A stretch of DNA of 34,498 bases from Candidatus Micrarchaeota archaeon (GCA_037444485.1 JBBIMI010000009.1:1-34498), one strand, 5' to 3'. Positions 1,933 through 28,085 are shown, counted from the stretch's first letter. Program-made: numbers and translations. The notes: generated by a model not told the origin, from the letters alone.

Positions 1933-2362
1933 TTAATGAAGTGTTTTCTCTAAGAGTTTGCTTAACTCGGGAATGAAGCTAGTCGCGAAAGCCAGCGCCT
2001 CCATGCAGGTTTCGGACGTGATTTCTTCGGCGCCGTAAACGCACTTGTTCCGCAGTTTCTTGAAGCGGTCGAACGAAGAAAGCAAATGCGCAGGTATGGA
2101 ATAAAATTTTTTCAAGAAGGCTATCACAGCTTCGTGCGAGTAAGGCTTGAATCCTTTCGCCGCCATTAGCGCTTTGGCTCGCTTCCCGCACCGCTTCGTA
2201 CGCATCTTCGAAAACGAATGCCGCGGTTGCCTTGTCCACGCGTTGCTGCTTGACGTAAGCGAGTCTCTCCAAAGCGCGGTTCATCAACGTTCTGGCCGTG
2301 CTCGCGTCAGGCAATTCTTTCCTTACGAGGTTTTCCCGCAAGTAGTAATCGAATTCTTCCAC
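1933..2362 (-). pseudogene. HEPN-domain protein (toxin of MNT-HEPN pair), frameshifted
   Basis: The N-half (MEEFDYYL...FEDAYEAVREASQ) and C-half (ALMAAKGFKPYSHEAVIAFL...LRNKCVY) are in different frames. Removing one T of TTT at 2173-2175 gives a continuous 142-aa HEPN-like protein. Confidence 0.8.
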
Positions 2363-2371
2363 TTTACTTCT

Positions 2372-2893
2372 TTACTTTAATAGCCTCAAGTAGCCCGACA
2401 AGACGATGCCGTTGCTCAAGTTATTCAGAAACTCTTTGGAACACTTGTTCAAGCTTATCTCGTGCAATACTATCTTTCGATGTAAATTCTTTTCAAAAGT
2501 TTTAAAGTCAAGCTTTTTTTCGAGACTAGTGATTACCGCCAAGTCGACATCGCTGTCCGACAAGTCTTCACCCCTCGAGAAACTGCCGAAAACTACGATT
2601 GCTTCAGGTTCTTCAAAAGTTTTTTCAAGAAAGTCGACGAGTCCGCACTCGTACAGCGAAAGCAGGTTATGAAAACGCTTCAAGATGATGAATTCCTTCG
2701 AGCGTTTAGCTGAAAACTAGGTTATGACCTTCGTCTTCTCGACTTCAAGCAAGTTTTTTTTACGGAGTTTTTCAACGATTTTCATTACGCCCGGCGCGGA
2801 GAAGCCCGTGAGCCGGGCTATTTCGCGCAAGTGAAACTTTTTTTCGGGAAACGCGAAGAAAAGTTCGAGAACCCCGTTAACCATCGTTAACAT
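2372..2893 (-). pseudogene. HTH + minimal nucleotidyltransferase (MNT antitoxin) with internal in-frame TAG
   Basis: The N-terminal HTH (FHLREIARLTGFSAPGVMKIVEKL) is in frame with the MNT motif FGSFSRGEDLSDSDVDLAV but separated from it by TAG at 2717-2719. Start is ATG 2893 or 2884. Confidence 0.82.
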
Positions 2894-18126: not shown

Positions 18127-18978
18127 TCAAACTATTTCCGAACATAGTTTTTGAATGACTTGCTGGCAACCTCTCCAGAAGGAAGGCAACTCGTTCTTCA
18201 CGAAGCCTTGGTAAGAGTCAGAGTACGCGAGGGTCAAGTGCTCGCCGGTTTTCTTGAATTCGTTTCCATACTCGTCGTAAATCTTTCGAATTATGTCGCG
18301 TTCGAAGTCTTTCTGCAGCAAGGACGGCTTGCGCAACAGCAAGTAGTCCGCTTGCCGCAGCGTGTTCACGTCCAAGTTTGAAGAGTTTTGGGAAACGAAT
18401 AGCACGCTCAAGTCCTTATGCCGCGAAATCAAGAGCAATTCACTCAACAGCTTGTTTGCGTTGCTGAAAGCCTCGCGGGAAGAAAACAAGATTCCACCCT
18501 CGTCAACAAGCAGAAACGAACAATTCTTGACGCTGTTCAAATCGTTGACGCAAGTAATCCATTGCGGGAGGGTTTCTTCGTTGAACCCCATTGCTGCCAC
18601 GCTGCGTCCTTTAGCGCGCGCGTTTTCAAGCAGTCGCAGGCCAAGCGCGCTTTTGCCGCTTCCCCGCGCGCCGATTATTATTCCAATTAAGTTTTTAGAG
18701 GTCAAGAGTTTTTGCTGGAACTCGCTTAGATCGCCGGAAATGTTTTTGACTTCAACAAGCGGCTTGAACGAAGCACTAACCTTCGGTTTTTTGCTTTCAA
18801 GCGCTTTGCGTTGCGCGAACAACTTTCCGTGCGAGAAGAGAAACGAAAAGATTTTCTTGAAAACCCGAAACAAGGCGAGCAGCAGCTTCCACAAGATTTT
18901 AAACAATATTTTAATGAAGCCCTTGATTAAGAACCACGCTGCGCCGAGGACCTTGCGCTTTAACGACTTTTTAGCCAT
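18127..18978 (-). CDS. Membrane-anchored P-loop ATPase, Zot/FtsK-HerA-like
   Basis: Amphipathic basic N-terminus; GARGSGKS, LLVDEGG and SRHK.LSVLFVSQ...LRQAD motifs. The last ~14 codons may be frameshifted. Confidence 0.72.
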   Translation of the reverse strand: MAKKSLKRKVLGAAWFLIKGFIKILFKILWKLLLALFRVFKKIFSFLFSHGKLFAQRKALESKKPKVSASFKPLVEVKNISGDLSEFQQKLLTSKNLIGIIIGARGSGKSALGLRLLENARAKGRSVAAMGFNEETLPQWITCVNDLNSVKNCSFLLVDEGGILFSSREAFSNANKLLSELLLISRHKDLSVLFVSQNSSNLDVNTLRQADYLLLRKPSLLQKDFERDIIRKIYDEYGNEFKKTGEHLTLAYSDSYQGFVKNELPSFWRGCQQVIQKLCSEIV

Positions 18979-19013
18979 GAAGTTATTAAGACGCGAAGAG
19001 AGTTTAAAAAAAG

Positions 19014-19193
19014 CGCCCTGGGCAGGACTCGAACCTGCGGCCTACTGATTTCAGCCCGTTGCCTTTTTTTTGAACGGCTAACAGTTTCGAACCCCCGCTT
19101 TTCGCTCTGCTTTTCGCTTTTTTTTGTGGGACAGTCGCTCTGCCGTTCAGCGCTCCAAACTTGTGGTTTGAAGCGAAGCTGAGCTACCAGGGC
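19014..19193 (-). tRNA. tRNA-Asn(GUU) with three introns (D-loop 17/18, anticodon stem 30/31, canonical 37/38)
   Basis: Acceptor stem GCCCUGG/CCAGGGC + G73, D stem GCUC/GAGC, T arm GCAGG-UUCGAGU-CCUGC. Removing 19145-19176, 19086-19131 and 19050-19078 gives a 73-nt tRNA with anticodon arm ACUGA-CUGUUAA-UCAGU. CCA is not encoded. Confidence 0.9.
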
Positions 19194-19215
19194 TCGAGAA
19201 TTATTTTGACTGAGA

Positions 19216-19425
19216 TTTTTAAATAACCTACGCTTAAAGGCGCGGGATTCCGCTGCCAGGCTTGGCGGCTGGCGCCACTACATCGCGCGAAACGTGCGCG
19301 AAACGCGGCGTCGAGGCCAGCGCCGCCCACGCGAACGAGGCCAGCCGCCCCTGCAAAATAACTGAAGCGAAATAAATAGGATTGATTCGTCCCGCGACTG
19401 AACTAGCGGATTTCTCAACCAAACA
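19216..19425 (-). mobile_element. Non-coding IS200/IS605-like miniature element / structured RNA, copy A
   Basis: Colinear by eye with 32872-33094; hairpins at both ends; no transposase ORF. Confidence 0.68.
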
Positions 19426-27465: not shown

Positions 27466-27585
27466 ATGGCAAAGAAAAAAAAGCACGAGGAAGAATGGGA
27501 GGAGGAAGAGGAAGAAGAGGAAGACTGGGGAGAAGAAGAGTGGGGTGAAGAGGAAGAAGGCGAAGAGGAAGAAGAAAGCGAGTAA
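27466..27585 (+). CDS. 39-aa ultra-acidic microprotein MAKKKKHEEEWEEEEEEEEDWGEEEWGEEEEGEEEEESE
   Basis: Below the ORF-track cutoff. SD GAGGTGA at 27450-27456, ATG at 27466, TAA at 27583-27585; Glu codons mix GAA and GAG. Confidence 0.7.
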   Translation: MAKKKKHEEEWEEEEEEEEDWGEEEWGEEEEGEEEEESE

Positions 27586-28085
27586 ACCCACAAAACCACG
27601 AATAAGACGAGAAAAACAGTCGAGAAAAGAATATACGAGAAAAGCGAAAAATAATAGACGAGAACGACGAGTAAGAAACGATGAAAAAAACAGGATGATG
27701 ACCTAATTCAATTCTTTTTTGTCTTTCTTTTGCCTTTCTTTTTTCCTTTCTTTTTTCCTTTCTTTTGCCTTTCTTTTTAATTCTTTTTTTCTTTTCCGCT
27801 TTTTATTTTTCGCTATTCCTTACTTCGCTACTTATTTTCCACGCATTTTATTTTCCGCACATTTTATTTTTCGCACATTTTCCTCATTCTTCCGCGTTAA
27901 TGCCAGCTTCCCCACTCGAACGCTTAAACTTGAAAACCCAAAAAAACCAAAAGCATTTTATTGCGTGGAAACATGTTTTTTAGGCGTGTTTTTAAGCATT
28001 TTAAGGCACGTTTTAAAGCACGTTTTTGTGGGGGCCGATGCGCCGGGTGCTGGCCGGATTTAGCGGATTTAGAGTTGAATTTAAA

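Follow-up and report, generated by a model that had tools for sequence, protein, structure and literature searches.

The window, by which we mean the whole stretch of 34,498 nucleotides that was analysed, carries on its minus strand a tRNA-Asn(GUU) gene of 180 nt, read from position 19193 to position 19014, in which the segments of the mature tRNA are separated by inserts of 32, 46 and 29 nt. Even in its unspliced form, the gene matches the Rfam tRNA family RF00005 over the entire model (19014..19193(-), 37.1 bits, E 1.9e-4, model positions 1-71 of 71; the gathering score of the family is 29 bits). RF00005 is the sole Rfam family above threshold within the 34.5-kb window, and its match is the sole credible one at E<=1. 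ARAGORN reported 0 tRNAs on the window and, when run in intron mode on a 311-nt locus, did not report the tRNA. After excision of the 32+46+29 nt by script, the remaining 73 nt are recognized by ARAGORN as tRNA-Asn(gtt), with stems of 7/4/5/5 bp and no mismatches. The first-pass annotation of this DNA had proposed a tRNA-Asn(GUU) with three inserts, a good tRNA as the spliced product, and concealment of the gene from standard scanners. Its coordinates were right, and the gene is borne out by the covariance-model match, by the spliced cloverleaf and by orthologues with matching intron sites (see below); the mismatch-free 73-mer agrees with the second statement; and the third is borne out by ARAGORN, which stays blank until the introns are excised. 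No second tRNA was found by ARAGORN and Rfam over the 34.5 kb.

The consensus positions of tRNAs include U8, A14, G18 G19, U33, G53 U54 U55 C56, A58, C61 and the G15/C48 pair, and the identity elements of tRNA-Asn are the anticodon GUU and the discriminator base G73. All of these are found in the spliced sequence; no CCA is encoded at the 3' end. Given the tRNA model score and the at least 11 orthologues, a chance origin of the locus may be regarded as excluded. A split or permuted tRNA is ruled out, as the four exons are colinear within the 180 nt. Intron-encoded C/D guide RNAs, such as that of the haloarchaeal tRNA-Trp intron, are marked by a C box RUGAUGA and a D box CUGA; UGAUGA is absent from the entire 180 nt, and Rfam families besides tRNA were not found at E<=1 in 18900-19300.

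All parts of the gene lie on the minus strand. Exon 1 (19177..19193) comprises positions 1-17, i.e. the acceptor 5' strand, U8 A9, the D-stem 5' strand and the AGCU of the D-loop, and is followed by the 32-nt intron 1 (19145..19176) at site 17/18 in the D-loop. Exon 2 (19132..19144) comprises positions 18-30, with the GGCA of the D-loop, the D-stem 3' strand, G26 and A27-G30, and intron 2 (19086..19131, 46 nt) interrupts the anticodon stem at site 30/31. The short exon 3 (19079..19085, positions 31-37) consists of A31, C32 U33, the anticodon G34 U35 U36, and A37; it is separated by intron 3 (19050..19078, 29 nt), at the canonical site 37/38, from exon 4 (19014..19049, positions 38-73), which contains A38, the anticodon stem 3' strand, the variable loop AGGCC, the T-arm, the acceptor 3' strand and G73.

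In a BHB, the splicing endonuclease cuts each 3-nt bulge between its second and third bases. This rule places the junction at 37/38, with helix bases 32-35, in all 8 genes with intron 3 (the window gene and the matches listed), and is supported by this landing at the canonical site. A BHB is described as a 4-bp helix between two 3-nt bulges in the available text of PMC5829648. The BHB core of intron 1 is a strict 3-4-3 one: its central helix UCAG(12-15)/CUGA is paired at 4/4 positions and its intron stem is 10 bp long, just as the earlier annotation had it; the outer helix is short (2 bp, C11-G19 and G10-C20). The same annotation took introns 2 and 3 for relaxed BHBs with one central mismatch each, and both fit that description as putative relaxed BHBs. 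Intron 2 has the central helix CGAC/UUCG (3/4, mismatch C28.U), an intron stem CCC/GGG of 3 bp, a 3' bulge AA|A, and an outer helix of 2 bp (G24-C32 and A23-U33). The AAA of the 3' bulge is kept in 5/5 genes (the window gene and the matches listed), and the geometry of the motif fits the published 'relaxed' BHB class only. Intron 3 has the central helix CUGU(32-35)/GCUG (3/4, mismatch U33.U), the bulges UA|G and AA|A, and an intron stem CCGUU/AACGG of 5 bp; its outer helix is the anticodon stem, of which just A31-U39 is contiguous before intron 2 is removed.

Intron 2 is A-rich and contains period-7 repeats of GCGAAAA type, forming an array of 4 GCGAAAA-like copies at 19096-19121. The other four orthologous copies are shorter, at 36-40 nt. 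Exon positions 19-27 recur in intron 2 as a 9-nt copy, GCAGAGCGA (19102-19115 vs 19135-19148). In the minimum-energy fold of the full precursor, the partner of the D-stem 5' strand is a GAGC further downstream, which is located, by dot-bracket count, inside this intron 2 copy.

BHB geometry is not usable as an argument against chance, because shuffled sequences give similar numbers of candidates. A BHB-only scan of the 180 nt found 9 candidate sites under strict criteria vs a shuffle mean of 3.9 (maximum 13); when the criteria were relaxed enough to include introns 2 and 3, it found 61 vs 36 in shuffled sequence. Intron 1 is among the strict candidates, and introns 2 and 3 appear at the first step of relaxation. 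The intron 1 region folds much more stably than shuffled sequence (z = -3.39, with 1/200 shuffles as good), and so does the intron 3 region (z = -2.86), although the minimum-energy structure there competes with the BHB; the intron 2 region (z = +0.48, 137/200 shuffles as good) shows no thermodynamic signal. In none of the modelled ensembles does a strict BHB conformer make up more than a small fraction (P <= 0.012 for the window gene).

Orthologues and the distribution of introns

We performed one scan of public genomes, using a degenerate pattern made of the T-arm and the acceptor 3' strand, which returned at least 120 loci; the pattern also matches tRNA-Asp of many archaea and bacterial tRNA-Arg. 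Among the matches listed, tRNA-Asn(GTT) is found at no fewer than 21 loci, nine without intron, seven with one, three with two and two with three. At least 11 are close orthologues of the window gene, with 62-70 of the 73 mature positions identical, and all 11, once their introns are excised in silico, are called tRNA-Asn by ARAGORN. The anticodon GUU and G73 are present in the window gene and in all 11 orthologues among the matches listed. The host fits the Micrarchaeum lineage: among the matches listed, 10 of the 11 orthologues, which share its intron sites, are titled Candidatus Micrarchaeota, and the remaining one 'archaeon'. Over 88 aa, the C-terminus of the Cdc6 protein encoded in the window has 75% identity to sequence flanking the tRNA-Asn at locus L102 (Micrarchaeota), which likewise argues for a Micrarchaeota relative.

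The introns of the orthologues are confined, in the matches listed, to the three sites of the window gene, 17/18, 30/31 and 37/38. All three introns occur in L082; introns 2 and 3 in L050, L073 and L111; intron 1 alone in L061, L072 and L074; intron 3 alone in L012, L102 and L118; and L081 has none. Together with the window gene, the matches listed thus provide five genes with the intron 2 site and eight with the intron 3 site, and the site and central helix of intron 1 are shared by 5/5 intron-1 genes. Intron 3 of the window gene is near-identical to that of L082 (score 37, 0/1000 shuffles as high), and in the same shuffle test the likeness to L082 has p=0.001 (intron 1) and p=0.04 (intron 2); the window introns are, to judge from these alignments, orthologous to the L082 introns. 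When the intron stem arms are paired in register with their own partners or with those of other species, intron 3 is informative (own 4-7 of 8 pairs, cross-species mean 2.8), intron 1 is weakly so (own 5-8 pairs vs 4.75), and intron 2 is weak or uninformative (own 3-5 of 8 pairs vs 3.8).

Three pairs of genes have identical mature tRNA-Asn and different introns: L050 and L102 (introns 2 and 3 vs intron 3), L111 and L118 (again introns 2 and 3 vs intron 3), and L074 and L012 (intron 1 vs intron 3). Because the mature sequence is the same within each pair, intron gain or loss at these sites is faster than exon divergence. Intron 2 is always accompanied by intron 3 (5/5), an association that is not significant with 12 genes (about 0.07 by our own estimate).

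Detection declines with intron number. The Rfam score is 74.3 bits for the intronless L081, 61-64 for genes with intron 3 only, 50-57 for genes with introns 2 and 3, and 44-48 for genes with intron 1 only; neither of the other three-intron genes, L082 and L079, is detected. ARAGORN in intron mode misses or misnames 9/12 of the intron-bearing tRNA-Asn genes among the matches listed (L082, L012, L102, L050, L074, L111, L118, L073, L079), naming six of them Tyr, Thr, Phe or Ser and missing three.

Locus L079, from an uncultured archaeon, has a second three-intron architecture of tRNA-Asn: removal of 31, 13 and 17 nt, at about 21/22, 38/39 and 51/52 with ambiguous junctions, leaves a 72-nt tRNA-Asn recognized by ARAGORN. 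As it stands, the L079 gene is undetected by Rfam at gathering and by ARAGORN. The scan also brought up numerous tRNA-Asp(GTC) genes that share the acceptor stem and are 100-184 nt long (L009, L014, L023, L037, L011, and others from DPANN and Bathyarchaeia). These long genes evidently carry one or more introns, some of them in the D-loop, and several are mislabelled Met, Gln, Val or Tyr by ARAGORN. A genome with two tRNA-Asn loci was not seen among the matches listed of the at least 120 loci.

Order of intron removal

Each of the three introns would form a 4-bp exon-intron helix flanked by two 3-nt bulges, both of which would be cut by a broad-specificity splicing endonuclease, presumably, in the Micrarchaeum lineage, the epsilon2 EndA described for ARMAN-2. 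The exons would then be joined by an RtcB-type ligase, and CCA added. Genes for EndA, RtcB and the CCA-adding enzyme were not found by Pfam among the 48 ORFs of the window. Intron 1, with its strict BHB core, would be cut independently of introns 2 and 3; the relaxed BHBs of introns 2 and 3 would compete, and intron 2 (and 1) would preferentially be out before intron 3.

The competition is visible in the use of exon nucleotides. C32/U33 take part both in the outer helix of intron 2 and in the central helix of intron 3, and A27-A31 both in the intron 2 core and in the anticodon stem, the stem that serves intron 3 as its outer helix; the central helices themselves fall on separate nucleotides (12-15, 25-28 and 32-35). 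From the dual use of C32/U33, it had been proposed in the first-pass annotation that splicing should be ordered. The overlap is real, and folding favours removal of intron 2 before intron 3, but the order is not forced, the central helices being separate.

The cost of each BHB was calculated as that of a constrained ensemble in which the core was forced (central helix, three intron-stem pairs, open bulges), for the precursor and six intermediates; the model includes no tertiary structure or protein. In the window gene, the intron 3 core has a modelled cost of 12.1 kcal/mol as long as all introns are present; the figure is 9.1 once intron 2 has gone and 6.7 once introns 1 and 2 have both gone. 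For intron 2 the cost is 4.3 kcal/mol, or 7.2 when intron 3 leaves first, and for intron 1 it is about 4.3 kcal/mol throughout. In L082 the coupling is weak: the cost of intron 3 changes from 7.5 to 6.1, and that of intron 2 is independent of intron 3 (10.6 vs 10.5). A strict-BHB model for intron 2 of L082 was rejected, with a cost of 10.5-11.7 kcal/mol and a preference of the intron for an extended helix; the 5' site of intron 2 is inside the extended helix in both L082 and L050.

As introns 2 and 3 compete for C32/U33 and for the anticodon stem, early removal of intron 2 (and 1) would be favoured. In these models, departure of introns 1 and 2 before the canonical intron 3 is thus the preferred order, and probably not a compulsory one, because the central helices are separate and because enzymes of this lineage cut relaxed motifs, as the accessible sections of PMC3239211 and PMC3488258 report. 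In archaeal multi-intron tRNAs, removal of one intron may be needed before the next BHB forms, according to the available text of PMC8450103.

Perfect complementarity over 8 nt exists between the 3' end of intron 1 together with the start of exon 2 (UGAAC|GGC, 19142-19149) and the first 8 nt of intron 3 (GCCGUUCA, 19071-19078). Of the 8 nt, 7 are kept in L082, the one other orthologue with three introns among the matches listed, and the helix forms in the minimum-energy fold of the window intermediate without intron 2. The chance of finding an 8-nt complement somewhere in 180 nt is roughly estimated at 0.2.

The most serious alternative accepts the gene and its introns as described and holds that splicing is unordered, the endonuclease recognizing each central helix and intron stem alone, so that the three introns are independent. 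It agrees with the confinement of the overlap to the outer helices and with L082, where the modelled cost of intron 2 is unaffected by intron 3. It sits less easily with the window gene, where the intron 3 core becomes cheaper by 3.0 kcal/mol without intron 2 and by 5.4 without introns 1 and 2, and where the 5' arm of intron 3 has its 8-nt complement at the 3' junction of intron 1, a pairing that forms in the minimum-energy fold without intron 2. We give independent splicing somewhat less than an even chance.

A more far-reaching reading joins the preferred order of removal to the distribution of introns: the introns would encode a splicing hierarchy, as opposed to being independent interruptions, and would at the same time turn over fast at three fixed sites, through an active mechanism of gain or loss in Micrarchaeota. 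We regard this combination as unlikely. If the hierarchy were true, the canonical intron would be a good substrate only once both non-canonical introns are gone, and the gene, probably the cell's only one for tRNA-Asn, would have a built-in timing or quality check.

The junction of intron 1 and the status of the gene

Intron 1 was assigned to site 17/18 on the basis of the BHB rule and of the D-arms of relatives without intron 1. The earlier annotation had put the junction at 15/16; applied to the very UCAG/CUGA helix that it described, the cut rule moves the junction 2 nt further 3', with the length still 32 nt. The intron is accordingly read as sitting at 17/18, not 15/16, and the mature D-loop as AGCUGGCA. 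With 17/18, the mature D-arms of 4/5 intron-1 genes equal those of relatives that are free of intron 1: the D-arm of the window gene is that of L073, L061 has the D-arm of L050 and L102, L072 that of L081, and L074 becomes identical to L012 across all 74 nt. The D-loops that follow from a 15/16 junction, AGACGGCA or AGAGGGTA, occur in 0/7 of the orthologues without intron 1 among the matches listed.

The competing placement, i.e. a junction between 15 and 16 (mature D-loop AGACGGCA) or a 30-nt register of intron 1, has some points in common with the accepted one. Spliced at 15/16, the gene also yields a 73-nt product that is a perfect tRNA-Asn to ARAGORN, and in the local minimum-energy fold the central helix is extended to 5 bp and the 5' bulge is moved by one base. 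The 30-nt register, which the earlier annotation had mentioned as an alternative, does exist in a simple BHB scan (p=18, q=48), but fails the comparison of D-arms. Against the 15/16 junction stand the cut positions implied by the UCAG/CUGA helix, which it disregards, and the seven orthologues without intron 1, which lack both of its D-loops and whose D-arms 17/18 reproduces exactly in four of the five genes. The competing placement is therefore highly improbable, and we retain 17/18.

The earlier annotation had also pointed out GCUGAA near the 3' ends of introns 1 and 3, and the motif is present in both. A common origin of the two introns, for which it might be taken, was rejected: their local alignment is insignificant (p=0.19). 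CUGAA ends intron 3 in just 2/8 orthologous copies (the window gene and L082), and the CUGA of intron 1, which pairs with the invariant U12-G15, is kept in 5/5 genes; the common GCUGAA would thus reflect pairing to exon bases. The likeness of introns 2 and 3 is limited to a low-complexity C-A8-G tract (p=0.012).

Both the tRNA and its intron structure show signs of selection. Across the 12 genes, the five stem pairs 27-43, 29-41, 49-65, 50-64 and 51-63 vary, and each variant is a standard pair; pair 27-43 is A-U in four genes, U-A in four and G-C in four. The central helix of intron 1 is paired at 4/4 positions in 5/5 genes, and the intron stems differ in sequence with pairing retained. Position 27 pairs with a base of intron 2, and exon and intron change together at this pair (A-U, U.G, G-C). 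The central helix of intron 3 is paired in 29/32 cells despite variation on the intron side, with all four pairs in 5/8 copies.

A TATA-like box, TTATTTAAAAAT, is located at 19215..19226 on the minus strand, its centre about 27 nt upstream of tRNA position 1, and most of the 11 orthologous loci have an A/T box of TTTAAAAA type equally far upstream. A run of 7 T (19006..19012, minus strand) begins one base past G73, and T-runs are seen 3' of several orthologues as well. We infer that the box is an archaeal promoter and that the T7 run is likely a terminator; transcription would start from the former, some 27 nt upstream, and stop at the latter. Stem covariation, the conserved TATA-like box and the T-run terminator argue together for a working gene, which makes a pseudogene or a chance resemblance appear very unlikely. 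That the locus is a decaying pseudogene with accumulated insertions, another gene providing tRNA-Asn, would accord with the mere 37.1 bits of the unspliced gene and is hardly credible in view of stems without any mismatch after excision, the same three insertion sites with maintained pairing in up to 8 genomes among the matches listed, the compensatory stem changes, the conservation of the promoter-like box and T-run, and the lack, among the matches listed, of any genome with two tRNA-Asn loci. With a high degree of confidence, then, we take the locus for a functional Micrarchaeota (DPANN) tRNA-Asn(GUU) with BHB introns at 17/18, 30/31 and 37/38, which would be spliced along the pathway set out above.

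Known systems and the rest of the window

Three-intron tRNAs, and multi-intron tRNAs in ARMAN, are already described, and the window gene is one of a rare kind. Multi-intron tRNAs of Thermoproteales were reportedly the subject of Sugahara 2007/2008 and Fujishima 2010. The available text of PMC3239211, PMC4033280 and PMC8450103 records archaeal tRNA genes that contain as many as three introns, mostly from Thermoproteales, and tRNAs with multiple introns are listed for ARMAN-1 and ARMAN-2 in Table 1 of PMC4033280, as far as that table is accessible. In ARMAN-2 (Ca. Micrarchaeum acidiphilum), 56% of the tRNA genes are disrupted, and the epsilon2 EndA has broad specificity, cutting strict and relaxed BHBs; the largest number of introns per gene found in ARMAN-2 is two, in tRNA-Pro(GGG), at 53/54 and 59/60 (PMC3239211, PMC3488258 and PMC12397907, in the parts of these papers available). 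Our literature searches brought up no paper on three-intron tRNAs in Micrarchaeota, which is weak evidence of absence.

ARMAN-2 itself shares with the window gene the lineage (to judge from orthologue titles and synteny), the presence of non-canonical and multiple BHB introns, the mixture of strict and relaxed motifs, and the fact that disrupted tRNAs were found only with several programs and a manual search; in the accessible accounts of ARMAN-2, however, there are at most two introns per gene, compared with three in the window tRNA-Asn. Thermoproteales are similar in having up to three BHB introns, with non-canonical sites in the D-arm and the anticodon stem, in the need for iterative intron removal for detection, and in rapid intron turnover (available text of PMC4033280, PMC4090602 and PMC8450103). 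They belong to another phylum, and their endonuclease is an (alpha-beta)2 enzyme with a Crenarchaea-specific loop; moreover, their introns are described in these sources as similar across tRNA species, i.e. as products of transposition, whereas here only tRNA-Asn orthologues were compared and introns 1 and 3 of the window gene are not significantly alike.

A red alga has a tRNA-Ile gene with three BHB introns, which include one in the D-arm and one at 37/38, and to judge from RT-PCR the anticodon intron is the last to leave (PMC9602550, in its accessible portion). This is the order favoured for the window gene, measured there and modelled here; the algal gene, unlike ours, is a eukaryotic nuclear gene, with sites 12/13, 37/38 and 53/54 (same source). 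Finally, a tRNA-intron system associated with a mobile element resembles the present one in that introns are present or absent between near-identical genes, pointing to recent gain or loss. A recombinase is implicated in that system, but no integrase was found here, only an additional P-loop ATPase ORF (see below).

Asparagine decoding in this genome probably rests on a gene that is invisible to routine annotation, and hidden tRNA genes of this sort bear on completeness estimates and codon-usage inferences in small-genome archaea. Incomplete tRNA sets were noted, and manual curation urged, in a survey of DPANN (available text of PMC5829648). With anything from no intron to three at three fixed sites, the 12 genes lend themselves to the study of intron gain and loss as a compact natural data set, and they offer the epsilon2 endonuclease natural substrates of both strict and relaxed type, among them one in which the coupling of splice sites could be tested.

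The remaining gene content of the window is archaeal, with Cdc6/Orc1, a proteasome subunit, FttA, DUF2070, NMD3 and a class I aminoacyl-tRNA synthetase recognized by Pfam. An ORF of 283 aa encoding a P-loop ATPase (18127-18978, minus strand) is located between cdc6 and the tRNA-Asn gene; matches to families (Zot, terminase-like, Sll1717-type) are all sub-threshold. At L102, the match to Cdc6 runs to residue 423 of 425 and stops about 35 nt from the tRNA, and the P-loop ATPase ORF of the window may be an insertion beside the tRNA gene. Rfam matches at 27468-27840 (Plasmodium RNase P, 34 bits; snR86, 25 bits) are far below threshold and were rejected as what look like composition artefacts of purine-rich, low-complexity sequence; the purine-rich stretch contains a small ORF rich in Glu and Lys. 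At 1933-2683 (minus strand), adjoining small ORFs encode a nucleotidyltransferase domain (Polbeta/NTP_transf_2, E 1e-9) and a weakly matching HEPN domain (E 2e-3), a pair that we take to be the usual minimal nucleotidyltransferase-HEPN layout.
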